Notes under the pieces: model-generated
Seen by the model: only the letters and a program-made list of their open reading frames with translations
Databases searched by the model: none
What the model was told of the DNA's origin: nothing
Made by a program: the position numbers and the translations under genes
In this document: one piece after another, positions 1-11,560 of the stretch
Layout of the letters: the number at the start of each line of letters is the position of its first letter
Numbering within the stretch: the first letter of the stretch is position 1
NCBI RefSeq assembly: GCF_054482525.1
Contig: NZ_JBTHVG010000004.1
Origin: a plasmid
DNA length: 64,000 bases
Strand: one strand, 5' to 3'

Positions 1-1
1 A

Positions 2-655
2 GAGCGCACGCTGGCAGTCCAGGCGGCACTCATGCAGCAGCCGGACAAATCTCTGGCACTGCTGGCATGGACGCTCTGCCTGAATGTGTTTGGCAGCGGG
101 GCGTACAGTAAACCAGCACAAATCAGCCTGGAATGTGAACATTACTCGCTGACCAGCGATGCGCCATCGGGGAAGGAAGGTGCCGCATTCATGGCGCTGA
201 TGGCAGAAAAAGCCCGTCTTGCTGCCCTGTTACCGGAGGGATGGTCACGGGACATGACGACATTCCTGTCACTCAGTCAGGAGGTGCTGTTATCCCTGCT
301 CAGCTTCTGCACTGCGTGCAGCATCCACGGTGTTCAGACCCGTGAGTATGGTCACACGTCACGCAGTCCGCTGGACTCGCTGGAAACCGCTATCGGCTTT
401 CACATGCGCGACTGGTGGCAGCCGACAAAAGCAAACTTCTTCGGACACCTGAAAAAGCCGCAGATTATCGCAGCCCTGAATGAGGCAGGACTGTCCGGTG
501 CCGCACGGGACGCGGAGAAGATGAAGAAAGGCGATGCCGCTGAACATGCAGAGTTCCATATGAAAGACAACCGCTGGGTGCCTGGCTGGATGTGTTCACC
601 ACGTCCACAGACGGATGCCACTGAACGCGCCGATAACCTGGCTGATGCCGCCTGA
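2..655 (+). CDS. 3' part of a leading-region protein (ParB-like family suspected); 5' end lies outside the window
   Basis: Reading frame is open from the window edge and in frame with ORF 32..655; sits immediately upstream of psiB. Family assignment is from memory of leading-region gene order only. Confidence 0.45.
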   Translation, partial: ERTLAVQAALMQQPDKSLALLAWTLCLNVFGSGAYSKPAQISLECEHYSLTSDAPSGKEGAAFMALMAEKARLAALLPEGWSRDMTTFLSLSQEVLLSLLSFCTACSIHGVQTREYGHTSRSPLDSLETAIGFHMRDWWQPTKANFFGHLKKPQIIAALNEAGLSGAARDAEKMKKGDAAEHAEFHMKDNRWVPGWMCSPRPQTDATERADNLADAA

Positions 656-706
656 TGAACAACCACACCGCCCCGCCGGAGACGGGGCGGCAGAGGGAGA
701 AATACG

Positions 707-1144
707 ATGATGAATACCGAACTGACACTGAATGCCCTGCAGTCCATGAATGCCCAGGAATATGAAGAAATCCGTGCTGCGGGAAGCGATATGCGCCGTA
801 ATCTCACTCACGAGGTGATGCGTGAAGTGGACGCACCAGCTAACTGGATGATGAACGGAGAGTATGGCAGCGAGTTCGGGGGCTTTTTCCCCGTCCAGGT
901 TCGTTTCACGCCAGCCCACGAACGTTTCCACCTGGCATTATGTTCGCCGGGAGACGTCTCTCAGCTCTGGATGCTGGTTCTGGTGAATGGTGGTGGACAG
1001 CCTTTCGCCGTCGTTCAGGTGCAACATATCTTCACGCCTGTCGCGATCAGTCACACGCTGGCGCTTGCCGCGACACTGGATGCGCAGGGATACAGTGTTA
1101 ACGACATCATCCATATCCTGATGGCAGAAGGAGGTCAGGCATGA
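707..1144 (+). CDS. psiB: PsiB, plasmid SOS-inhibition protein B
   Basis: 145 aa product with near full-length similarity to PsiB of F/IncI plasmids (TELTLNxLQxMNAQEYE...HILMAEGGQ); followed by psiA with a 4 bp overlap. Confidence 0.93.
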
Positions 1145-1860
1145 GCGCACGTTCACGGGCACTGATCCCCCTCAGCGCAGAACAACAGGCCGCCATGCAG
1201 GCGGTGGCTGTCACAGAACAACGTCGTCGTCAGGGACGCACACTTTCAGCATGGCCTTATGCCACCGCTTTCTTTCGCTGCCTGAATGGCAGTCGCCGGA
1301 TTTCGCTGACCGATCTCCGCTTTTTTGCCCCTGCGCTGACGAAGGAGGAATTTCATGGCAACCGTCTCCTGTGGCTGGCTGCCGTGGATAAACTGATTGA
1401 AAGTTTTGGGGAAGTCTGTGTTCTTCCCCTGCCATCCGATGCGGGGCACCGTCTGTTCCCGTCCGTGCCTTTTCGTGAAGGTGAGCGTCGTCGTCAGAAA
1501 ACCACGCTGACAGAGCAGAAATACAGCCGCCAGCGGGAACGTGAGGCAGAACGACGGGAACTGGAATACCAGACATGTTTTGCTCAGGCGCAGATTGACC
1601 TTGCGTTTCATACTCCCGCCACGGTCGGAAGCTGGTTGTCCCGCTGGTCTGGTGTTGTTGAGGAGCATGATCTGGAAACGATTTTCTGGGGGTGGTGCGG
1701 GCGTTTTCCGTCACTGTCATCATTTGACCGGTTTTTCTGGCAGGAGGAACCACTCTGGCGGCTGATTTTTGAAGCCGGTGAGGCCGGTCGTGGTGCACCG
1801 ATACAGGTACGTGCACTTGAGCAGTGGATGATCCCGAACAAGCTGGAGAACGTAATATGA
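1141..1860 (+). CDS. psiA: PsiA, plasmid SOS-inhibition protein A
   Basis: 239 aa ORF overlapping the psiB stop (ATGA); size and position match PsiA. Confidence 0.85.
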
Positions 1861-2453
1861 TGAAATCAGACGAAAAATACCAGGTTCCCGCGTGGATGCG
1901 ACCTCTGTTGCCGTTGCTCTGCAACACCGGGGGGAACGATCCGGAAGAACTGCTGAATGATACAGAAACCACTGCCAGTGCGAATGTTGTCCGTTATGTA
2001 CTGATAGTTGCTGTGCGGTCGCAGGTTGATCTGCTGCAGCTTCTGTACAGGAAAGGGCTGTTGCGCACAGAGATACCAGGTGGCTTTTCACCGGAAGAAG
2101 CGCAGGCACTCCTGGATAATCTGGTGCGCAGCCATATCAGCAAGGCGCTGTCGGGCGAGCGAATGGCAGCCCGTGACAGAAATGCCGATCTGGCCTGGAT
2201 TAGACAGCAACTGGTCGATGCCGCCTGGTTTGTCCGTGCCACACTGGAAGCGCATGGGATGAGCGTCGGAAATGAGAGTCCCCCTGCTCCGCCGGAGACA
2301 ATGCCGGACATACAGACACGGGAACTGGTGATGTTGATCAAGCGACTGGCATCATCGCTGAAAGCGGTGAAACCGGACAGTTGTGTGGTGCGTGAAGCGC
2401 AGGACTGGCTGCGCGACAGAAAACTTGTGGATATCACAGATATTCTCCGGTGA
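1857..2453 (+). CDS. leading-region hypothetical protein (about 198 aa)
   Basis: ATG at 1857 overlaps the psiA stop; the listed 1824 start lies inside psiA. No recognisable domain. Confidence 0.55.
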   Translation: MMKSDEKYQVPAWMRPLLPLLCNTGGNDPEELLNDTETTASANVVRYVLIVAVRSQVDLLQLLYRKGLLRTEIPGGFSPEEAQALLDNLVRSHISKALSGERMAARDRNADLAWIRQQLVDAAWFVRATLEAHGMSVGNESPPAPPETMPDIQTRELVMLIKRLASSLKAVKPDSCVVREAQDWLRDRKLVDITDILR

Positions 2454-2914
2454 ACCAGGCATGTATATTTTACGCAGGGACATGCCGGTCATGATCGTTT
2501 CGTTCCAGGGGTGGTCTGGAGATCATGCGGTGTGCTCCCTGCTCTCGCCGGAATAAGGACGTCGCCGCCGGCTCCGCTTTTACCCGGCCATGCGGGGCAT
2601 GGCCTTGTGGGTTTTCAGTTATGTGGCCTCAGCGTCGTGTGCGGGCTGTGCCGTGCCTCCATCGTAGCCGGGCTTCTGCGGGCGGGTTGCAAGGTAAGGT
2701 GAACCGCTGCGGTCACCCGGTCCCTCCTTCCCGTCCGCCGTGATTTTCCGGTCGTTCACCCGCTCAGATTTCGCGGTCTCACCCTCCAACTCCCGCCAGC
2801 CGTGTGCGTCAGGCTGCGGCTTCCCTTGCGCCCTTGCAACCCTGCAGGCCCGGCAAAGATGGAGGCACGGCACCGCCCGGTGTCGCAGAACATGTGACTA
2901 TGGAGGATTCGGGA

Positions 2915-3415
2915 ATGTCTGTTGTTGCACCTGCTGTATACGTTGGAACCTGGCACAAATACAACTGTGGAAGCATCGCCGGACGCTGGTTTGACCTGAC
3001 CACGTTTGATGATGAGCGCGACTTTTTCGCCGCCTGCCGTGCTCTTCACCAGGATGAAGCCGATCCTGAACTGATGTTTCAGGATTATGAGGGATTCCCG
3101 GGGAATATGGCCTCTGAATGCCATATCAACTGGGCCTGGGTTGAAGGCTTCCGCCAGGCACGGGATGAAGGCTGCGAAGAGGCTTATCGTCTCTGGGTGG
3201 AGGATACCGGTGAGACGGATTTTGACACCTTCCGCGATGCCTGGTGGGGCGAGGCTGACAGTGAGGAGGCTTTTGCGGTTGAGTTCGCCAGTGATACCGG
3301 CCTGCTGGCTGACGTGCCGGAGACGGTGGCGCTCTATTTTGACTATGAGGCGTATGCGCGGGATTTATTCCTGGACTCCTTCACCTTTATTGACGGTCAT
3401 GTGTTCCGTCGGTGA
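2915..3415 (+). CDS. ardA: ArdA antirestriction protein (type I restriction inhibitor, DNA mimic)
   Basis: 166 aa from the internal ATG at 2915 (MSVVAPAVYVGTWHKYNCGSIAGRWFDLTTFDDERDFF...), matching ArdA length and acidic composition; the longer 2804 start runs into a GC-rich leader. Confidence 0.9.
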   Translation: MSVVAPAVYVGTWHKYNCGSIAGRWFDLTTFDDERDFFAACRALHQDEADPELMFQDYEGFPGNMASECHINWAWVEGFRQARDEGCEEAYRLWVEDTGETDFDTFRDAWWGEADSEEAFAVEFASDTGLLADVPETVALYFDYEAYARDLFLDSFTFIDGHVFRR

Positions 3416-3770
3416 TTTACTCCCCCGCTCCGGCGGGGGTATGGCCTGCCAGGCCGCCGGAAAACCCTGGCAGGCTTACGCCTGCCTGAAATGCAGGAGG
3501 GCCGCGCCTGCGGCGCTGCCCTTCCTGCCCGTCATGGTGTGAGGCATTTTTCTGTTATGTCGTTTCTGTTGTTCTGATTTCCGGAGGCGGGGACACCTTC
3601 GGCTCCCGGCTGCCTGGCGGCATCCGGTCGTCAGGCCCGACTCCGACAGGCAGCTGCTGGCGCACCCGCCAGTCTCCGCCGAACCCGCTGGCGCGGTTTC
3701 GGGCTGCCGCTACGGTCCGATGTCTGAAAAACCAGGCTTGCAGCGACCGTTCCGGTCGCGCCGCCCCTGT

Positions 3771-4120
3771 CGCGCCGGAAACGGCGCTCCCTGCACACCT
3801 GACGGTGTGTAAGGCCACTGCGCCTGATGGCGCAGTCAACCCTTCCGCCGCCACCCCTGCGGCCTGTTTCCCGCTGTGGACTTTCCGGGGGCTGGAGTAA
3901 CCACATCCCGTTTCAGCAGTCCAGGGGAAGATATACCGTCCACAAAATTTTTAGCCATAAACCCGGCAAAAAATTTTGCGTCCGCCCCCGGACAGCTGCC
4001 CCGTGACGTGGTGACGGACGCCCCATCGGAAAGGTCCACTGCGGGGAGAAACCCCGAAGAAGTGGACGGCAGAAGGGGCTTTCGCCCCTCCGGGGAGCAA
4101 CCGGTCGGCCCGGCGACCTG
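3771..4120 (+). promoter_or_regulatory. Frpo/ssi-like structured repeat, copy 1 (putative single-strand promoter)
   Basis: About 350 bp non-coding block repeated at 6637..6990 with internal palindromes (CACACC-TGACG-GGTGTG; CTGCGCC-TGAT-GGCGCAG); ends about 20 bp before ORF 4144. Confidence 0.55.
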
Positions 4121-4143
4121 ATTCAGCAGAAGGAGACGTTTTC

Positions 4144-4578
4144 ATGACTGTCAGCAGCACGATTTCCGTTTTTTGCCGCGACGGGGTGTTCCGTACCGTT
4201 TACTGCCACCTGCACGGTGAGCCGACCTGGAACGGTCGCATCCTGCATACCCACTATGCCACCGGTCAGCAGGCCGAAGCCCTGGTTGAACACGGTGATA
4301 TCCGTTGCCTCGGTCCCCGTTGCGACAAACCCGCCGGGCATACGCTTCAGAACCCGGTGGACGGTGTGACGGCTTATTACGGACGTGACAGTGGTTTCCG
4401 GATGGACAGTGAGGCGCGTGAGTACCGTTCTTTCAGGGAGGCTATTGCCACTGAAAGCACTGAAGAGGTGCGCTTCCATTATGTGTTCATCGACGGCTAC
4501 TGGAAGGTGATGTACCGCACGCCGGAAGGCTGGAAGATGAAAGCGCTCGCGCTGGCACTGCGTCGCTGTCCGAAATGA
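4144..4578 (+). CDS. leading-region hypothetical protein (144 aa) downstream of ssi-like repeat
   Basis: Clean ORF with GGAG-type RBS (agaaggagacgttttcATG); no recognisable domain. Confidence 0.6.
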   Translation: MTVSSTISVFCRDGVFRTVYCHLHGEPTWNGRILHTHYATGQQAEALVEHGDIRCLGPRCDKPAGHTLQNPVDGVTAYYGRDSGFRMDSEAREYRSFREAIATESTEEVRFHYVFIDGYWKVMYRTPEGWKMKALALALRRCPK

Positions 4579-4670
4579 AAAAAGGCAGGGCGATAAACCC
4601 TGCCTCTCTCCGCCGGCGCTTCCCCGCCAGGAAGTCCGGCATCTCAATCACTATCTATGGAGATTATGCC

Positions 4671-4937
4671 ATGAGACCATCAATTATCTTCGCAACCGCC
4701 GAGTATGTAAAGCGTCTGCGTGAAGAGTGCCTGCGGGAGAATAAACCCCTGCACCGCCATACCCGCTTCAGACGTCAGGAGCTGGCACAGGATGAGATTA
4801 ACCCGGACGTCCTGGCGATGAGCGGCCATATCGCCAGACGCTGCAGTGAGCAGAAGCGGGTGCGTATCCCCGCTATGAAAGTCAGCGAATGGGGCCACCT
4901 GCTCCGCGCGCTTGAAATTGAGCGGGTCTGCCACTGA
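4671..4937 (+). CDS. hypothetical small protein (about 88 aa)
   Basis: ATG at 4671 preceded by ctatggagattatgcc; the listed 4575 start overlaps the previous gene end. Confidence 0.4.
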   Translation: MRPSIIFATAEYVKRLREECLRENKPLHRHTRFRRQELAQDEINPDVLAMSGHIARRCSEQKRVRIPAMKVSEWGHLLRALEIERVCH

Positions 4938-5001
4938 TTAACCCTTGCCGTCTGCCTGTGCAGGCGGCAGGATACGTTCAGACATCTCACCAGGAGGAAC
5001 C

Positions 5002-5892
5002 GTGAGTAAGAAGAAAACCACCACGACGCCCACGCCGCATGATGCCGCGTTCCGGTCGTTCCTGGCGAATCCCGACGTCGCCAGAGATTTTCTGGAACTG
5101 CATCTTCCGGCGGAGTACCGGCAGTTGTGCGACCTGTCCACGCTGAAGCTGGAACCCGCCACCTTTGTTGAGCCGGACCTGCATCAGTACGCCAGCGATA
5201 TCCTCTGGAGTGTGAAAACCACCGGGGGTGAAGACGGCTATGTTTATACGCTCATCGAGCACCAGAGCACCGAAAATCTGTACATGCCTTTCCGCATGTT
5301 ACGTTACAGTGTGGCGGCGATGCAGAGACATCTGGAGCAGCACAAAACGTTGCCACTGGTGATTCCTGTGCTGTTCTATCATGGTGAGCGCAGCCCGTAC
5401 CCGTACAGCATGAACTGGCTGGACTGTTTTGAGAATCCGGCACTTGCGGCTAAAATATACACAAAGCCGTTTCCGCTGGTTGATATCACTGTCGTTGATG
5501 ACAATGAAATCATGAACCATCGCCGGATGGCCGCACTGACGCTGCTGATGAAGCATATCCGCCATCGTGACATGATGGATCTGCTGGACAAACTCCCGCA
5601 GGTCATGGTGGAAATTTCAGACGAGCAGGTGCGTGTTCTGATTCATTACATCGTTAACGCAGGGGACTCTGTATCACCGGAATTTATGCGGGCGCTGGCT
5701 GAGCGTCTGCCGCAGCATGAGGATAAACTGATGACTATCGCAGAACGTCTTGAGCAAAAAGGTCGCCAGGAAGGAGCGCTTGAAAAAGCCCTGGCTATTG
5801 CGTGCCAGCTTCAGAAAATGGGGATGACGCCGGAGCAGATTAAGCAGGCTACCGGACTTTCCGAAGCTGAACTGAAAAAAATCATTCACTGA
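5002..5892 (+). CDS. Rpn-family (YhgA-like) PD-(D/E)XK recombination-promoting nuclease
   Basis: GTG start at 5002 with strong RBS (caggaggaac cGTG); product VSKKKTTTTPTPHDAAFRSFLANPDVARDFLELHLP... resembles E. coli Rpn proteins across the nuclease core and C-terminal domain. Confidence 0.75.
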   Translation: MSKKKTTTTPTPHDAAFRSFLANPDVARDFLELHLPAEYRQLCDLSTLKLEPATFVEPDLHQYASDILWSVKTTGGEDGYVYTLIEHQSTENLYMPFRMLRYSVAAMQRHLEQHKTLPLVIPVLFYHGERSPYPYSMNWLDCFENPALAAKIYTKPFPLVDITVVDDNEIMNHRRMAALTLLMKHIRHRDMMDLLDKLPQVMVEISDEQVRVLIHYIVNAGDSVSPEFMRALAERLPQHEDKLMTIAERLEQKGRQEGALEKALAIACQLQKMGMTPEQIKQATGLSEAELKKIIH

Positions 5893-5902
5893 TGAGAGCA
5901 TC

Positions 5903-5930
5903 ACAGCCCGGCAAAATGCCGGGCTTTTTT
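5903..5930 (+). terminator. rho-independent terminator after the Rpn gene
   Basis: cagcccggcaaaatgccgggc followed by a T-run. Confidence 0.6.
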
Positions 5931-5954
5931 GTCAGCAGGAGCAGAGAAAACAGT

Positions 5955-6149
5955 ATGACGCTTGCAGAACGTCTTATACAGAAAGGTTTCGACGAAGGTT
6001 TTAAAGAAGGTTTTAAGAAAGGTGCGCTTGAAGTGGCGCGGGAAGCAGCCTGCCGGCTGCGGGATATGGGCTGGACGCCGGAACGGATTCAGGAGGCGAC
6101 CGGACTTTCCGGTGAAGAACTGAAAAAGCTGTTTCCTGATGAGCAGTAG
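5955..6149 (+). CDS. stand-alone Rpn C-terminal-domain paralog (about 64 aa)
   Basis: MTLAERLIQKGFDEGFKEG...MGWTPERIQEATGLSGEELKKLF aligns with the last about 55 aa of the upstream Rpn (MTIAERLEQKGRQEGALEK...MGMTPEQIKQATGLSEAELKKII). Confidence 0.6.
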   Translation: MTLAERLIQKGFDEGFKEGFKKGALEVAREAACRLRDMGWTPERIQEATGLSGEELKKLFPDEQ

Positions 6150-6179
6150 CCTGACATTCTGCCAGGCTGTGAATCACGC

Positions 6180-6431
6180 TCACACATTCCCTGCCGTTTC
6201 CCCCAGTTCATTTTCCAGACGCCTGATGATATCTGCCTTGCGCATCCCCTGCATGTGAGGCAGCAGGTCACGGACTGAAAGTGCCTGGGTGGTCCTCCAG
6301 ACGGTGACGTCCACCTGTTCCGCATTTTCCCAGGCGTGCCATGTTCTCTGCGTCACGCCAAATTCTCTGGCCGCTTTTTCGCGTGACCATAGCATGCTTT
6401 TTCGCCAGATTCGCAGTTCCCAGCCGGTCAT
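6180..6431 (-). CDS. small helix-turn-helix DNA-binding protein (83 aa)
   Basis: REKAAREFGVTQRTWHAWENAE resembles an XRE/Cro-type HTH; palindromic sites lie in its upstream region. Confidence 0.5.
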   Translation of the reverse strand: MTGWELRIWRKSMLWSREKAAREFGVTQRTWHAWENAEQVDVTVWRTTQALSVRDLLPHMQGMRKADIIRRLENELGETAGNV

Positions 6432-6447
6432 AAAACACCTTTGAAAA

Positions 6448-6535
6448 AGTGAAAAAACTTCACTTTATTTTATCATCACAATTGCCAAATCAGCGCGATA
6501 AATAAGTGTAAAAAAGTGAAGAAATTTCACTTTTT
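6448..6535. promoter_or_regulatory. pair of 15 bp palindromes (GTGAAAAAACTTCAC and GTGAAGAAATTTCAC), putative operators
   Basis: Two near-identical inverted-repeat sites about 65 bp apart, immediately upstream of the minus-strand HTH gene. Confidence 0.35.
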
Positions 6536-6636
6536 TTGTTTGTAAGTGTCGTGCGGTTTTCTCTGTTTTCACCTGTGCGGGAGTGGTGTGCCAGTGACCA
6601 CCACATGCCATTGTTGTGCCGTCGTTTTTCTTCAGT

Positions 6637-6990
6637 CGCGCCGGATGCGGCGCTCCCTGCACACCTTACGGTGTGTAAGGCCACTGCGCCTGATGGCGCA
6701 GCTGTCTCTTGCCTGTCTGCCGCCGCACTGCGGCCTGTTCTCCGCAGACGGACTTTCCGGGGGTACATACACGACCACATCCCGTTTCAGTCGTCCAGGG
6801 GAGAGATGTACCAGCCACAAAACTTTTTGCCGCTGGCGTCAAAAACTTTTGCGTCTGCCCCCGGACAACTGCCCCGTGACGTGGTGAGCGTCCCCCGTCG
6901 GAAAGGTCCACTGCGGGGAAATACCCTAAGACCCGGACGGCAGAAGGAGCTTCGCTCCTCCGGGAAATGACCTGGCTGACCCGGCAGTCG
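6637..6990 (+). promoter_or_regulatory. Frpo/ssi-like structured repeat, copy 2
   Basis: Homologous to 3771..4120 over its whole length with scattered substitutions; ends about 20 bp before ORF 7012. Confidence 0.55.
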
Positions 6991-7011
6991 TGACGATGAG
7001 GAGACAATGTG

Positions 7012-7860
7012 ATGAATCAGACTTTACCCACTGCTGACCTGAATACTGCCGGCACGACAGATGTTATTCCGTCTGTGGCTATCGACCGCATCATCGCGCA
7101 GCGTAACGAAGGTATTGCACTATTCATGCAGGCGATGGAATGCCTGGCGACAGCGCGCAGGATTCTGCTCGATGCGTCAGGTGATATTTTTCTTTACGGG
7201 TTTGAAGACTGCGTGACTGATTCCGTTCGTCGCATGGATAAGCCGGAAGAAGCGAAAAGGAATATCACCCGTCTTGCCGACCGGAAAATCTGGGACCGCC
7301 TGATGACAGATACGGGCATGTACACCTTCATGAGTTCATGCCAGCGTGATGAGTGGAACAGCCAGCTGATGAGCGACACCTGTCCTGAAATCACCCTGGA
7401 CAATGTACTGGCAACATTCCGCCATCTTAATACCAGCAAGATGCAGACGTTTGAACAGGGACTGATTGATGTCTACCGGAAATTGTCATGGGATTACAGA
7501 ACCAATAATCCCTGCCGTCTGGGCAAGAAAATCATTATTGAAAACATGCTGTACCGCTGGAGTAACGGGCGTGTGACGCTGGACTGCAGCGGACGGGAGG
7601 CACTGGATGACCTGGTACGTCCTTTTTATCTGCTGGAGGGGCGAAACGTTCCTGACTTCCGGAGCAGCATCGGGGCGCAGTATGGTGAATTTCTCGGGAA
7701 CGGCGACAACGTCGGTAAGCTGTTAGAAGGGGAATATTTTACGGTGCGTGGCTACCAGAAAGGGACCGTACACATTGTCTTTAAGCGTCCTGACCTTGTT
7801 GAAAAACTGAATGATATTATTGCACGGCATTATCCTGGTGCATTGCCGCCACGAGTCTGA
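7012..7860 (+). CDS. leading-region hypothetical protein (about 282 aa) downstream of ssi-like repeat
   Basis: ATG at 7012 after GAGGAG RBS; long clean ORF; no domain assigned with confidence. Confidence 0.6.
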   Translation: MNQTLPTADLNTAGTTDVIPSVAIDRIIAQRNEGIALFMQAMECLATARRILLDASGDIFLYGFEDCVTDSVRRMDKPEEAKRNITRLADRKIWDRLMTDTGMYTFMSSCQRDEWNSQLMSDTCPEITLDNVLATFRHLNTSKMQTFEQGLIDVYRKLSWDYRTNNPCRLGKKIIIENMLYRWSNGRVTLDCSGREALDDLVRPFYLLEGRNVPDFRSSIGAQYGEFLGNGDNVGKLLEGEYFTVRGYQKGTVHIVFKRPDLVEKLNDIIARHYPGALPPRV

Positions 7861-7867
7861 TTAAACA

Positions 7868-7905
7868 GAAAAGCCCTGGTATTTATGCCGGGGCTTTTTT
7901 TTCTG
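7868..7905 (+). terminator. rho-independent terminator
   Basis: agccctggtatttatgccggggc followed by a T-run of 8. Confidence 0.6.
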
Positions 7906-7945
7906 TAATCATCATAATCTCAGAACACGATGTGACATTGTCACA

Positions 7946-8287
7946 TCAATTGTTGTTCATATCGATGCCATCTTTCCTGCCTGAATCTGTCTTTTTAGGT
8001 GCTGTTTTAGAGGAAGAACGGCGGGATGGTTTTTTCGATTCTGCTTCCCGAATAATGTCACGAAGTGCCTTCTCTCCTACTTCATACCCTGCATTTTTAA
8101 GCGTGTCACGAACATCTGCCAGTGTATAACCCTTTGTCCTTACCAGGACAATGATGTCATCACGAATGGCATCAAGAAAATCACGCAATGTTTTCCGTTG
8201 AGCGGTGAGGTCCGGCAATTCCGATAAGGCAGCTTTTGCCAGCTGGATGTCATCATCTGAGTAAAATTTTTTAGAAGCCATTGGCAC
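7946..8287 (-). CDS. hypothetical protein (113 aa) with basic Ser/Lys-rich C-terminus, adjacent to oriT
   Basis: Clean ORF; tail SKKPSRRSSSKTAPKKTDSGRK suggests nucleic-acid binding; no family assigned. Confidence 0.5.
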   Translation of the reverse strand: MPMASKKFYSDDDIQLAKAALSELPDLTAQRKTLRDFLDAIRDDIIVLVRTKGYTLADVRDTLKNAGYEVGEKALRDIIREAESKKPSRRSSSKTAPKKTDSGRKDGIDMNNN

Positions 8288-8289
8288 TT

Positions 8290-8514
8290 TCTCTCCGTTT
8301 CATGTTGAAGTCTGATTTTATCATCAAAAACTGACTCCTGGCAGGGCTGCGCCCTGCTTCTGCCGTCTGCATAAGACTATGATGCACAAAAATAACAGGC
8401 TATAATGGCCTGAAAAACGGGACAGGATGTGCAATTGTAATACCGTCACACGCGACGCTATTACAATTGCCATCTGGTCAGGGCTTCGCCCCGACACCCC
8501 GTAAGGAGCCTGAA
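8290..8514. other. oriT region (IncI1-type) with NikA-binding inverted repeat
   Basis: Intergenic region upstream of nikA containing the imperfect inverted repeat GCAATTGTAATA...TATTACAATTGC (about 8430..8470) and the palindrome CAGGGCTGCGCCCTG (about 8340). Confidence 0.65.
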
Positions 8515-8847
8515 GTGAGTGATAGTGCGGTAAGAAAGAAAAGTGAGGTACGGCAAAAGACAGTTGTCAGGACACTCAGATTCTCTCCTGTTGAGGATGA
8601 AACCATCAGGAAAAAAGCTGAAGATTCCGGACTTACTGTATCTGCTTACATCCGAAATGCAGCACTGAATAAGCGAATTAACTCCCGTACAGATGATGCT
8701 TTTCTGAAGGAGTTAATGAGACTGGGAAGGATGCAGAAGCATCTGTTTGTTCAGGGAAAAAGAACCGGTGACAAGGAATACGCAGAAGTGCTTGTTGCCA
8801 TAACCGAACTTACAAATACATTGCGTAAACAGTTAATGGAAGGTTGA
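8515..8847 (+). CDS. nikA: NikA relaxosome accessory protein (ribbon-helix-helix)
   Basis: 110 aa from a GTG start after AGGAG RBS (VSDSAVRKKSEVRQKTVVRTLRFSPVEDETIRKKAED...), matching R64 NikA; the upstream part of the listed ORF is oriT. Confidence 0.85.
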   Translation: MSDSAVRKKSEVRQKTVVRTLRFSPVEDETIRKKAEDSGLTVSAYIRNAALNKRINSRTDDAFLKELMRLGRMQKHLFVQGKRTGDKEYAEVLVAITELTNTLRKQLMEG

Positions 8848-8857
8848 GGATTCTCCG

Positions 8858-11560
8858 GTGAATGCAGTCATTCCGAAAAAGAGAAGGGACGGCAAGTCTT
8901 CGTTCGAAGACCTGGTATCCTACGTCTCTGTCCGGGATGACATGACCGATGAGGAACTGGATTTATCTTCTTCTTCGCAGGCTGAACAACCGCACCGAAG
9001 CCGTTTCAGTCGCCTTGTTGATTATGCGACACGTCTTCGAAATGAGTCATTCGTGGCGCTGGTTGATGTCATGAAGGACGGCTGCGAATGGGTCAACTTT
9101 TATGGTGTCACCTGCTTTCATAACTGTACTTCTCTTGAAACTGCCGCTGCAGATATGGAGTACATTGCCCGGCAGGCACACTATGCAAAAGATGACACTG
9201 ATCCTGTTTTTCACTACATCCTTTCCTGGCAGTCACATGAAAGCCCGCGTCCGGAACAGATTTATGACAGTGTACGTCATACGCTGAAATCACTCGGCCT
9301 TGCCGACCATCAGTATGTCTCTGCCGTGCATACTGATACAGATAATCTGCACGTCCATGTGGCTGTTAACCGGGTACACCCTGAAACGGGTTATCTGAAC
9401 CGGTTATCATGGAGTCAGGAAAAACTCAGTCGTGCCTGCCGTGAGCTTGAACTGAAGCATGGTTTTGCTCCGGATAACGGTTGCTGGGTCCATGCGCCGG
9501 GAAATCGTATCGTTCGCAAAACTGCCGTTGAACGTGATCGCCAGAACGCTTGGACACGCGGAAAAAAACAAACTTTTCGCGAGTATGTTGCGCAGACAGC
9601 GGTCGCTGGTTTACGCAGTGAACCTGTACATGACTGGTTATCCCTGCATCGTCGTCTTGCTGAAGATGGTTTGTACCTGTCTCAGATGGACGGAAAATTT
9701 CTGGTGATGGATGGCTGGGATCGCAACAGGGAAGGTGTACAGCTTGACTCGTTTGGTCCCTCCTGGTGTGCAGAAAAACTCATGAAAAAAATGGGTGACT
9801 ACACGCCAGTGCCAAAAGACATTTTCAGCCAGGTGGAAGCACCAGGACGCTATAATCCGGACTTCATTGCAGCTGATGTTCGCCCGGAAAAAATCGCTGA
9901 AACAGAAAGTCTGCAGCAGTATGCCTGTCGTCATCTTGGAGAACGTCTGCCGGAAATGGCACGGGAAGGACGGCTGGAAAACTGCCAGGCTATTCACCGC
10001 ACACTGGCTGAAGCGGGATTATGGATGCGTGTTCAGCATGGTCACCTGGTTATCTGTGACGGTTATGATCATAACCAGACTCCCGTTCGTGCTGACAGCG
10101 TATGGTCACTGCTGACGCTCGACAATGTGAATCAACTCGATGGTGGCTGGCAGCCTGTACCAACAGATATTTTCCGCCAGGTTACGCCAACAGAACGCTT
10201 CCGTGGTCGTCGTATGGAGAGCTGTCCTGCGACCGATAAAGAATGGCACCGTATGCGTACAGGTACGGGGCCGCAGGGGGCTATCAAACGCGAACTGTTT
10301 TCTGACAAAGAAAGTCTGTGGGGATACAGCATCAGCCATTGTAGCCCTCAGATTGAAGAAATGATCACACAGGGTGAGTTTACCTGGCAGCGTTGTCATG
10401 AGTTGTTTGCACAACAGGGACTGATGCTACAGAAACAACATCACGGGCTTGTTGTCGTTGATGCCTTTAATCATGAGCAAACGCCGGTGAAGGCCAGCAG
10501 CATTCATCCTGATCTGACTCTGGGGCGTGCAGAGCCACAGGCCGGACCTTTTGTGAGTGCCCCAGCAGATTTGTTTGACAGGGTGCAACCTGAAAGTCGC
10601 TATAACCCGGAGCTGGCTGTCAGTGACAGGTACGGGGTCAGCAGTAAACGTGACCCAATGCTGCGCCGGCAGCGACGTGAAGCCAGAGCTGAGGCCCGTG
10701 CTGACCTGCGTGCCCGCTATCTGGCATGGCGTGAACAATGGCGTAAACCAGATCTGCGTTATGGGGAACGTTGTCGGGAAATTCATCAGGCATGCCGTCT
10801 GCGGAAGTCACACATTCGTGCGCAGTACGATGATCCGGCATTACGTAAGCTGCATTATCACATTGCAGAAGTTCAGCGAATGCAGGCATTGATCAGGCTG
10901 AAAGAAGACATCAGGGATGAGCGGCAGAAACTTATTGCTGACGGGAAGTGGTATCCACCCTCTTACCGTCAGTGGGTCGAAATTCAGGCTGCTCAGGGAG
11001 ACAGGGCTGCTGTATCGCAGCTGAGAGGCTGGGATTATCGCGATCGCCGTAAAGATAAGTCACGCACAACGACAACAGACCGCTGTGTCGTGCTTTGTGA
11101 ACCGGGCGGAACGCCGGTATACGGTAATACCGGTGATCTCGAGGCCCGTTTGCAGAAGAACGGGAGTGTTCGTTTCCGTGACCGTCGGACGGGAGAGTTT
11201 GTCTGTACGGATTATGGTGACAGGGTTGTTTTCCGTAATCACCATGACCGCAATGCGCTGGCAGATAAACTGGATTTGATTGCACCGGTATTATTCGGGC
11301 GTGATCCACGCATGGGTTTTGAACCAGAAGGAAACGACAAACAATTTAACCAGGTCTTTGCTGAAATGGTTGCCTGGCATAATGTGACAGGCCGTACCGG
11401 TCACGAAGACTACAGGATTACGCGACCGGACGTGGATCATCACCGTGAAGGAAGTGAACGCTACTACCGCGATTATATCGCGGCGAACAGCAACGATGAC
11501 GCATCACTGCCTCCGCCGGAGCAGGATAAACTCTGGGAACCGCCTTCTCCGATGAGATGA
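8858..11560 (+). CDS. nikB: NikB relaxase (MOBP-type)
   Basis: 900 aa ORF after nikA; contains the histidine motif HVHVAVNRVHPETG; size matches R64 NikB. Confidence 0.9.
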   Translation: MNAVIPKKRRDGKSSFEDLVSYVSVRDDMTDEELDLSSSSQAEQPHRSRFSRLVDYATRLRNESFVALVDVMKDGCEWVNFYGVTCFHNCTSLETAAADMEYIARQAHYAKDDTDPVFHYILSWQSHESPRPEQIYDSVRHTLKSLGLADHQYVSAVHTDTDNLHVHVAVNRVHPETGYLNRLSWSQEKLSRACRELELKHGFAPDNGCWVHAPGNRIVRKTAVERDRQNAWTRGKKQTFREYVAQTAVAGLRSEPVHDWLSLHRRLAEDGLYLSQMDGKFLVMDGWDRNREGVQLDSFGPSWCAEKLMKKMGDYTPVPKDIFSQVEAPGRYNPDFIAADVRPEKIAETESLQQYACRHLGERLPEMAREGRLENCQAIHRTLAEAGLWMRVQHGHLVICDGYDHNQTPVRADSVWSLLTLDNVNQLDGGWQPVPTDIFRQVTPTERFRGRRMESCPATDKEWHRMRTGTGPQGAIKRELFSDKESLWGYSISHCSPQIEEMITQGEFTWQRCHELFAQQGLMLQKQHHGLVVVDAFNHEQTPVKASSIHPDLTLGRAEPQAGPFVSAPADLFDRVQPESRYNPELAVSDRYGVSSKRDPMLRRQRREARAEARADLRARYLAWREQWRKPDLRYGERCREIHQACRLRKSHIRAQYDDPALRKLHYHIAEVQRMQALIRLKEDIRDERQKLIADGKWYPPSYRQWVEIQAAQGDRAAVSQLRGWDYRDRRKDKSRTTTTDRCVVLCEPGGTPVYGNTGDLEARLQKNGSVRFRDRRTGEFVCTDYGDRVVFRNHHDRNALADKLDLIAPVLFGRDPRMGFEPEGNDKQFNQVFAEMVAWHNVTGRTGHEDYRITRPDVDHHREGSERYYRDYIAANSNDDASLPPPEQDKLWEPPSPMR

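Follow-up and report, generated by a model that had tools for sequence, protein, structure and literature searches.

The small helix-turn-helix (HTH) gene ygeA (R64-type), which lies with its upstream DNA at positions 6180-6535 of a 64,000-nucleotide stretch of plasmid DNA (NCBI RefSeq assembly GCF_054482525.1, contig NZ_JBTHVG010000004.1; the whole stretch is called the window here), is in our view quite probably a monocistronic, negatively autoregulated repressor gene. Its promoter region holds two palindromes, O1 and O2, whose identification as the operators of the YgeA protein is well supported by comparison with distant homologues. The window is the origin-of-transfer (oriT)-proximal portion of an IncI1/I-gamma-type conjugative resistance plasmid, and ygeA lies in the leading region, which is transferred first; it is matched by the Salmonella plasmid MH430881 with 100% identity over the query and by ∼2000 IncI-complex plasmids with 92-99% identity.

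An earlier, sequence-only reading of this DNA had described a minus-strand 83-aa HTH gene preceded by two near-identical palindromes. Both descriptions hold: the open reading frame (ORF) starts with an ATG behind a Shine-Dalgarno sequence, and the two 15-bp palindromes (GTGAAAAAACTTCAC at 6449-6463 and GTGAAGAAATTTCAC at 6516-6530) were found and each extend to AAAAAGTGAA-N5-TTCACTTT(T). The resulting 19-bp sites share the consensus AAGTGNA-N5-TNCACTT and are separated by 67 bp from centre to centre, and an inverted repeat with perfect arms of 11 nt occupies 6510-6536. When AAGTGAANNNNNTTCACTT was searched with at most 2 mismatches, O1 and O2 were the sole matches in the window, against 0.31 expected, and the looser core GTGNA-N5-TNCAC likewise returned these two sites alone. 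The scanned pattern was taken from the data itself, and comparison across related loci is the stronger test. Two additional AAGTG half-sites (TAAGTGT) at 6504-6508 and 6544-6548 lie asymmetrically around O2; these could be chance occurrences in AT-rich DNA or accessory half-sites.

Homologues were collected by tblastn in plasmids, from the protein database and by one scan of species-representative genomes, and the loci compared comprise ∼30 from Enterobacterales (30-96% amino-acid identity), among them the matches of the genome scan and plasmid matches from Salmonella and Serratia. In nearly every homologous locus the centre of a proximal palindrome AAGTG-N9-CACTT lies 22-26 bp before the ATG, and this was seen in Escherichia, Salmonella, Enterobacter, Citrobacter, Serratia, Hafnia, Yersinia, Erwinia, Rahnella, Buttiauxella and Pluralibacter. 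Of 42 motif instances counted in 292 kb from 31 related loci, 36 fell in the 150 bp upstream of an HTH gene start, a portion that makes up 1.6% of the sequence. In a six-way alignment of the intergenic region the invariant columns concentrate on O1, O2, the −10 element and the ATG, while the O1-O2 spacer is unalignable between IncI sub-types, for which the synonymous divergence (dS) of the coding sequence is ∼1.2. The outer AAGTG/CACTT bases are invariant and the inner bases of the half-site vary with the protein lineage: GTGAA/GTGTA half-sites pair with the recognition helix (helix 3) T(Q/L)RTWHAWE, GTGCA half-sites with (S/C)LR(T/S)YK, and GTG(A/T)CA half-sites with the short ISLRTYKRYE forms. 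The operator thus travels and co-evolves with the gene, and therefore behaves as a cognate operator would. The autoregulatory arrangement proposed from the sequence alone is well supported by this pattern, in which the position, the core and the adjoining −10 element are kept in distant homologues while the half-site depends on the lineage.

The same pattern makes it extremely unlikely that the palindromes are something other than YgeA operators, for instance hairpins or weak terminators active in both directions, or sites bound by a CRP-like protein or another host factor. Each palindrome is indeed flanked by an A-run and a T-run, O2 folds as a single-strand hairpin, and GTGA...TCAC resembles the CRP core. 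However, the terminator scan did not call the stems, which are AT-rich and contain 2 G-C pairs, no T-run follows the site in other lineages, and the outer AAGTG does not co-vary freely but stays the same throughout. The spacing from GTGA to TCAC is 7 bp, as against 6 bp in CRP sites, and the inner bases follow the protein lineage at a site that tracks the gene across unrelated backbones.

The predicted promoter of ygeA adjoins O1 directly (Table 1). A position weight matrix (PWM) scan placed the same −10 element at −41 to −36 from the ATG in five divergent loci, with a TG extension in the IncI types, and found no good −35 in any of the five. The operator has a TAnnnT hexamer, in most cases TAAAAT or TAGAAT, immediately next to it in 27 HTH-proximal loci. 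Transcription in the window is predicted to start near 6460, inside O1; since the predicted start lies within O1 and the −10 abuts it, occupancy of this site should block initiation. A conserved divergent promoter at O2 was considered and rejected, as PWM candidates occurred in IncI types only and had no equivalents in distant loci.

Table 1. Coordinates of ygeA, its predicted control elements and the surrounding features in the window
Feature	Position	Strand	Remarks
ygeA (R64-type), 83-aa XRE/Cro-type helix-turn-helix protein	6180-6431	minus	ORF with ATG start
Shine-Dalgarno sequence AAGGTG	6436-6441	minus	4 nt before the ygeA ATG; read in the sequence; kept in IncI-type variants
O1, proximal operator (predicted), AAGTGAAAAAACTTCACTT	6447-6465		centre 25 bp upstream of the ATG; covers the predicted transcription start
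Extended −10 element (predicted), TGATAAAAT	6467-6475	minus	hexamer TAAAAT at 6467-6472; no good −35
O2, distal operator (predicted), AAGTGAAGAAATTTCACTT	6514-6532		centre 92 bp before the ATG, at about −63 relative to the predicted start
ssi/Frpo-like single-strand promoter element of the transferred strand	6635-6990	minus	drives the DUF4942 gene; outside the regulator
Rpn nuclease gene	4945-5892	plus	Pfam Transposase_31, E = 3.8e-78
Short Rpn-tail ORF	ends 6149	plus	
DUF4942 gene	7009-7860	plus	
yggA, MobC-like	7946-8287	minus	
oriT	between 8287 and 8467		
nikA	8467-8847		right of ygeA
nikB	8858-11560		right of nikA

Compared with O1, the distal operator is far less constant. About half of the lineages have a distal copy, at −79 to −92; it is accompanied in Buttiauxella by a third operator copy near −135 and is absent in five loci (L018, L024, L027, L028 and L030). 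Where both are present, their spacing is 56, 57, 64 (in Hafnia) or 67 bp. We also considered helical phasing of the two sites, given that 67, 57 and 56 bp could be read as one-turn steps, and this idea was refuted by the 64 bp in Hafnia, by the losses of O2 and by separations of 0.8 kb. Because O2 is kept in many lineages and lost in others, it is probably non-essential, and in view of its variable spacing, its losses and the lack of a conserved promoter beside it we treat it as auxiliary.

These properties also bear on an alternative in which YgeA acts as a delayed timer in the manner of the controller (C) proteins of restriction-modification systems: at low levels it would bind O2 and activate the promoter that has no −35, while at high levels it would fill O1 and repress, giving a delayed, switch-like rise after conversion to double-stranded DNA (dsDNA). 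A good extended −10 combined with the absence of a −35 in every lineage, a second upstream site of the same sequence in many lineages and the presence of the small XRE-type controller C.BclI among the structural matches of YgeA would all suit such a device. Nevertheless we consider it rather unlikely, as the five loci without O2 keep both O1 and the −10, the four different spacings leave both the distance and the helical phase between O2 and the promoter variable, three plasmids carry O2 0.8 kb away, and no restriction gene lies downstream.

Under the preferred reading of negative autoregulation, ygeA would be transcribed from a sigma-70 promoter of the extended −10 type with no usable −35, starting at ∼6460. 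YgeA, a small XRE-type HTH protein and presumed dimer, would bind the 19-bp O1, which follows the −10 hexamer immediately and includes the predicted start site, so that bound protein would block RNA polymerase; the comparative data point in this direction. O2, 67 bp upstream, would then be an auxiliary site that probably sharpens or stabilises repression without being essential. The analysis shows the layout of the locus, its conservation and co-variation, the selection on the gene, its orientation and the lack of further sites; DNA binding, dimerisation, the position of the start site and repression by YgeA are all inferred here. For dimeric binding in particular, the two-fold symmetry of the 19-bp sites and their co-variation with the protein lineage are suggestive.

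The orientation of ygeA determines when it could be expressed. As nikA, nikB and oriT lie to its right and the leading genes are on the plus strand, the transferred strand is the minus strand, which carries the sense of ygeA. The transferred strand serves as template for the leading genes but not for ygeA, so no ygeA transcription can take place before a complementary strand exists. The gene would accordingly be silent during single-stranded entry and become expressible after complementary-strand synthesis, and the outcome may be a brief burst in the naive recipient followed by a low, self-limited level. The earlier proposal that the gene cannot be transcribed from the incoming single strand thus stands, and the orientation behind it is conserved. 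In every locus with enough flank the homologues lie 2-4.5 kb from a MOBP relaxase gene and oriT, on the strand opposite to the DUF945/DUF932, DUF5983, DUF4942, KlcA, ArdA, PsiA, PsiB, ParB-like, SSB and methylase genes, and this opposite orientation is kept in at least 11 unrelated plasmid backbones. The MobC-like yggA is the sole leading-region gene that shares the strand of ygeA.

In homologous loci ygeA is always directly behind an element of the ssi/Frpo type, which serves as a single-stranded DNA (ssDNA) promoter. In the window, the fold of the transferred strand over 6400-7010 contains a long hairpin at ∼6720-6944 (z = −8), and from ∼6635 onward the element is homologous to a repeat at ∼3700-4100 near ArdA: ∼350 bp are closely similar and the left flanks are unrelated. 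The possibility that the operators are part of the ssi repeat was therefore dismissed, since O1 and O2 lie outside the shared portion in the window. Three class 1 ssDNA promoters, ssi1-3, have been mapped on the related plasmid pESBL (PMC12672017).

We then asked how far the operators reach. No operator site other than O1 and O2 was present in the 64-kb window at up to 3 mismatches, and at the same tolerance the complete 91-kb IncI-gamma plasmid pPNCS007087.3 held none beyond the two self sites, so that the idea of a plasmid-wide regulon was abandoned. The sequence-only reading had gone further than autoregulation in suggesting that YgeA shuts off the leading-region genes once the plasmid is double-stranded, that is, that the protein made from dsDNA represses the promoters of neighbouring leading-region operons. 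This is an attractive notion insofar as ygeA is expressible from dsDNA only, invariably occupies a place between two leading operons, immediately behind an ssDNA promoter element, and has counterparts elsewhere in the repressor control of establishment genes (PMC6294495). The data nevertheless make it very unlikely. There is no operator at other promoters in the window or in the 91-kb relative, the sites of the whole family are essentially self-proximal, no conserved divergent sigma-70 promoter lies beside O2, and the main Frpo hairpin starts ∼190 bp from O2. Moreover, the shut-off of leading genes has been ascribed, on the basis of RNA-seq, rapid amplification of 5' cDNA ends (5' RACE) and microscopy, to ssDNA promoters losing their activity on conversion to dsDNA, and such inactivation needs no repressor (PMC12672017, PMC9849209).

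Genetic data from pESBL point the same way. The orthologue on that plasmid, Hp21 (O3K_25942, 68116-68367, minus strand), has a P(non-essential) of 1.00 in transposon sequencing (Tn-seq; PMC4288162), which means that under the conditions used, a permissive laboratory mating, its loss neither blocks transfer nor releases anything lethal in donors; being non-essential for both maintenance and transfer, it does not hold back a toxic operon. In the same dataset nikA and nikB score 1.00 for transfer (PMC4288162). With no operator at other promoters, ssDNA promoters that inactivate by themselves and a dispensable Hp21, a role of YgeA as general off-switch of the leading region is not supported.

For the autorepressor itself no other target was recognisable on the plasmid by scanning, and any output beyond self-control may be exerted in trans, with targets in the host or in other mobile elements. 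Three observations weigh against the preferred reading. Firstly, a strongly conserved gene that seemingly regulates only itself has no obvious selective value, and a target is therefore missing from the story. Secondly, YgeA from the window scores under the Pfam gathering thresholds, as described below. Thirdly, a few operator copies occur away from the gene, which hints at a role beyond simple autoregulation. One of these is in a Pluralibacter plasmid contig (L030), where an orphan second Frpo flank at 10950-11060 bears TAAAAT and a perfect operator (AAGTGCAGTTTTTGCACTT) but is followed by no HTH gene; the real gene is 5 kb away. Distal operators also stand beside a Frpo flank 836 bp upstream of the gene in L031 and L045 and 835 bp upstream in L025 (5158-5177), and a copy at ∼4881-4899 in L046, likewise beside a Frpo flank, lies 1112 bp upstream of the gene. 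In L025, L031 and L045 a divergent toxin-antitoxin-like cassette with large TTCGTAC...GTACGAA palindromes of its own lies between the gene and the distal operator.

Two further explanations were considered. In one, the promoter-operator unit would serve as a regulated promoter at the Frpo flank, antisense or convergent, that fires in dsDNA against the 3' end of the preceding operon (the Rpn pair), with YgeA setting the level and the gene being one output among others. The convergence of ygeA on the preceding operon, with 30 bp separating the stop codons and no convincing minus-strand terminator after ygeA in a terminator scan, would fit this, as would the gene-less orphan unit in L030 and the retention of distal operators at Frpo flanks after insertion of the toxin-antitoxin-like cassette. 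On the other hand, this orphan is a single copy among ∼40 loci, the operators lie outside the ssi repeat in the window, autorepression would keep such a promoter weak, and the preceding gene varies between plasmids (Rpn, methylase, DUF957, psiA); we give this explanation very little weight. In the other, ygeA and its promoter-operator unit would form a conserved sensor of double-strandedness that flanks ssDNA promoters and is the one module of the leading region able to fire only after complementary-strand synthesis, its output being regulated antisense or convergent transcription that silences adjacent leading operons once the plasmid is established, or trans-regulation of genes of the host or of rival elements. 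We regard this as unlikely; the orphan operator in L030, the distal operators 0.8-1.1 kb away after cassette insertion, and the strong conservation of what looks like a self-regulator would be compatible with it.

That conservation is evident from the coding sequence. Between the window type and a Salmonella sub-type with 82-84% amino-acid identity, synonymous divergence (dS) is ∼1.2, so near saturation at synonymous sites, and nonsynonymous divergence (dN) is ∼0.1; with a dN/dS of 0.07-0.09, ygeA is under strong purifying selection. The exact YgeA sequence occurs on at least 1000 public contigs, some of which annotate it as 'ygeA' after R64. In Pfam the window protein matches HTH_31 (E = 6e-5, 23.7 bits, cut-off 27) and HTH_3 (E = 9e-3, 16.5 bits, cut-off 23), whereas an orthologue from Citrobacter (L019) clears the HTH_3 threshold with 26.0 against 23 bits. 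Matches in NCBIfam were limited to sub-threshold ones to RstR, MqsA and HipB, and in PHROGs YgeA falls into family 6962, which has no assigned function. Based on 12 homologues, an AlphaFold model reached a predicted local distance difference test score (pLDDT) of 87.8 and shows five helices (residues 3-12, 17-24, 28-35, 42-60 and 65-76), in agreement with a five-helix XRE-type fold in which helices 2-3 form the HTH. The best Foldseek matches of this model were SinR, Aca2, NHTF, CapH and HipB, with C.BclI also among them; their probabilities were 0.9-1.0 and their E-values weak, because the HTH domain is small, and the shared core is ∼50 residues. A profile search of all PDB sequences returned Aca2 (7ezy) as best match, with E = 3.8e-5.

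The anti-CRISPR-associated repressor Aca2 (anti-CRISPR-associated protein 2, DUF1870; from phage ZF40 and relatives) is by sequence the best relative of YgeA with a solved structure; it aligns from residue 1 (MT.YEL...) and has 26-29% identity in the Foldseek alignments. Other Aca2 entries in the PDB reached no better than E = 0.07-0.34 against the YgeA profile, and a Pfam scan of the window YgeA with E <= 1 returned no DUF1870 match. Aca2 represses its own gene as an HTH dimer; its promoter contains two similar inverted repeats, of which one is dominant and the other auxiliary (PMC6765145). YgeA resembles it in having inverted repeats in its own predicted core promoter, and the auxiliary role proposed for O2 would parallel the Aca2 repeat that contributes only at high protein levels (PMC6765145). 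YgeA has 83 aa and no C-terminal dimerisation domain, compared with 116-125 aa for Aca2 (the 7ezy alignment covers residues 1-68 of a 125-aa chain), and its operator core is AAGTG...CACTT rather than TTCG...CGAA, with sites 56-67 bp apart that flank the promoter. Unlike aca2, ygeA has no acr or other gene upstream in the same operon and is solo in nearly all homologous loci. Many 'solo' Aca-like genes without an acr partner are known (PMC9410906).

The C proteins of restriction-modification systems (C.BclI, C.AhdI, C.Esp1396I) are likewise ∼80-aa XRE-type HTH proteins with paired palindromes in their own promoters, and would share with YgeA the logic of delayed expression after entry into a new cell. 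Their C-boxes are adjacent and span ∼35 bp in all, whereas 56-67 bp separate the YgeA sites, and some lineages do without the distal one. Nor is a restriction or methylase gene under the control of YgeA, whose neighbours are the convergent Rpn pair and the divergent ssi element with the DUF4942 gene. Among plasmid regulators, ArdK and ArdR of IncN/IncW plasmids are repressors of establishment or leading-region genes. Reg576 of the Bacillus plasmid p576 is an autoregulated repressor of establishment genes, and its absence from a naive recipient creates a transient window of expression (PMC6294495). It belongs to the ribbon-helix-helix proteins and has operators at four promoters, in contrast to the XRE-type YgeA with an operator at its own promoter only. 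Finally, XRE-type antitoxins (HipB, HigA, MqsA) give weak sequence and fold matches and bind multiple palindromic operators in their own promoters, but ygeA is monocistronic without a toxin partner and disruption of Hp21 is tolerated (PMC4288162). YgeA is therefore best filed as a distinct, uncharacterised clade of the XRE family, whose mechanism by analogy may be like that of Aca2-type or Cro-type autorepressors and whose logic may be like that of the C proteins and Reg576.

Several similarly named or similarly placed genes were considered and set aside. The F-plasmid YgeA of Couturier et al., which lies downstream of Frpo1 on the strand opposite to that of R64-type ygeA, is an unrelated protein that merely shares the name, and an opposite-strand ORF beside Frpo2 of F, examined as an analogue, encodes no HTH. 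The essential XRE-like regulator orf20 of pOXA-48 is probably a different gene from the IncL homologue, as orf20 follows nuc and the homologue precedes resD. This IncL/M homologue, on a pOXA-48-type IncL plasmid (L002, 7543-8829), has 31% identity and does not stand alone: it shares an apparent operon with two neighbours that it overlaps, a hypothetical gene and one annotated as 'restriction endonuclease'. No palindrome of the O1/O2 type was found upstream of it. Its location inside an apparent operon implies that the family is also used in operons outside the leading region.

With regard to the surroundings, the order away from oriT is yggA, DUF4942 gene, HTH gene (minus strand), Rpn-tail ORF and Rpn gene, followed on the left of the Rpn gene by two small ORFs, a second ssi-like repeat and ArdA. 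The earlier placement of the HTH gene between an Rpn pair and an ssi-like repeat agrees with the Rpn gene found on one side and the ssi-like element beyond the operators on the other. At 5905-5925 a strong intrinsic terminator, AGCCCGGCAAAATGCCGGGCT with a T-run after it, lies directly behind the Rpn stop codon and within the 85-aa Rpn-tail ORF as listed (5892-6149). A start at the ATG at 5956, which has a GGAG ribosome-binding site, is more plausible for this ORF, and its orthologues show a weak HTH_Rpn_C match; the product may be an RpnS-like small partner that is expressed separately from the nuclease. RefSeq relatives carry an annotated 65-aa hypothetical protein, WP_052975742.1, at 6465-6662 (minus strand), which overlaps O2, the promoter and the ssi flank; this ORF call over regulatory DNA seems spurious. 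In an I-gamma relative (L001) a gene for the RNA-guided endonuclease TnpB is inserted between psiA and ardA at 2352-3527, in the orientation of the leading genes. Known RNA families were absent from positions 1-9000 of the window, and the PADLOC defence-system models returned nothing meaningful. The yggA homologue Orf35 of pCTX-M3 is a reported repressor of the nikA-nikB-tra operon (PMC6112013), and both opposite-strand genes beside oriT, ygeA and yggA, may be regulators that act in the dsDNA phase.

The gene order in the window matches rows 18, 20 and 22 of Supplementary Table 1 of Samuel et al. 2024, where family 22 (2333 members, median ORF position 2 from oriT, strand −1) adjoins families 20 (RpnE, position 3) and 18 (RpnB, position 4). 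Judged by position, orientation and neighbours only, ygeA is possibly family 22. Samuel et al. 2024, who give WP_151333485.1 as representative of this family, assigned no operator, mechanism or function to it.

IncI-type and related MOBP plasmids are major carriers of genes for extended-spectrum beta-lactamases (ESBL) and other resistances, and their leading regions are now recognised as anti-defence islands that are expressed from ssDNA. Within them, ygeA is one of only two leading-region genes on the other strand and, if it is family 22 of the 2024 survey, belongs with ∼2300 members to the commonest leading-region families. Its mechanism as it stands would be textbook negative autoregulation, which makes YgeA a conserved but mechanistically ordinary autoregulator; were the sensor reading true, it would add a second, protein-based layer to the switch from single-stranded to double-stranded expression. 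As family 22, it would already have been listed, without characterisation, in the 2024 survey; defined here are the operator AAGTGNA-N5-TNCACTT, the predicted promoter and their conserved placement. The operator consensus provides a testable handle on a widespread regulator, and it is what is needed to locate its target in trans, if one exists.

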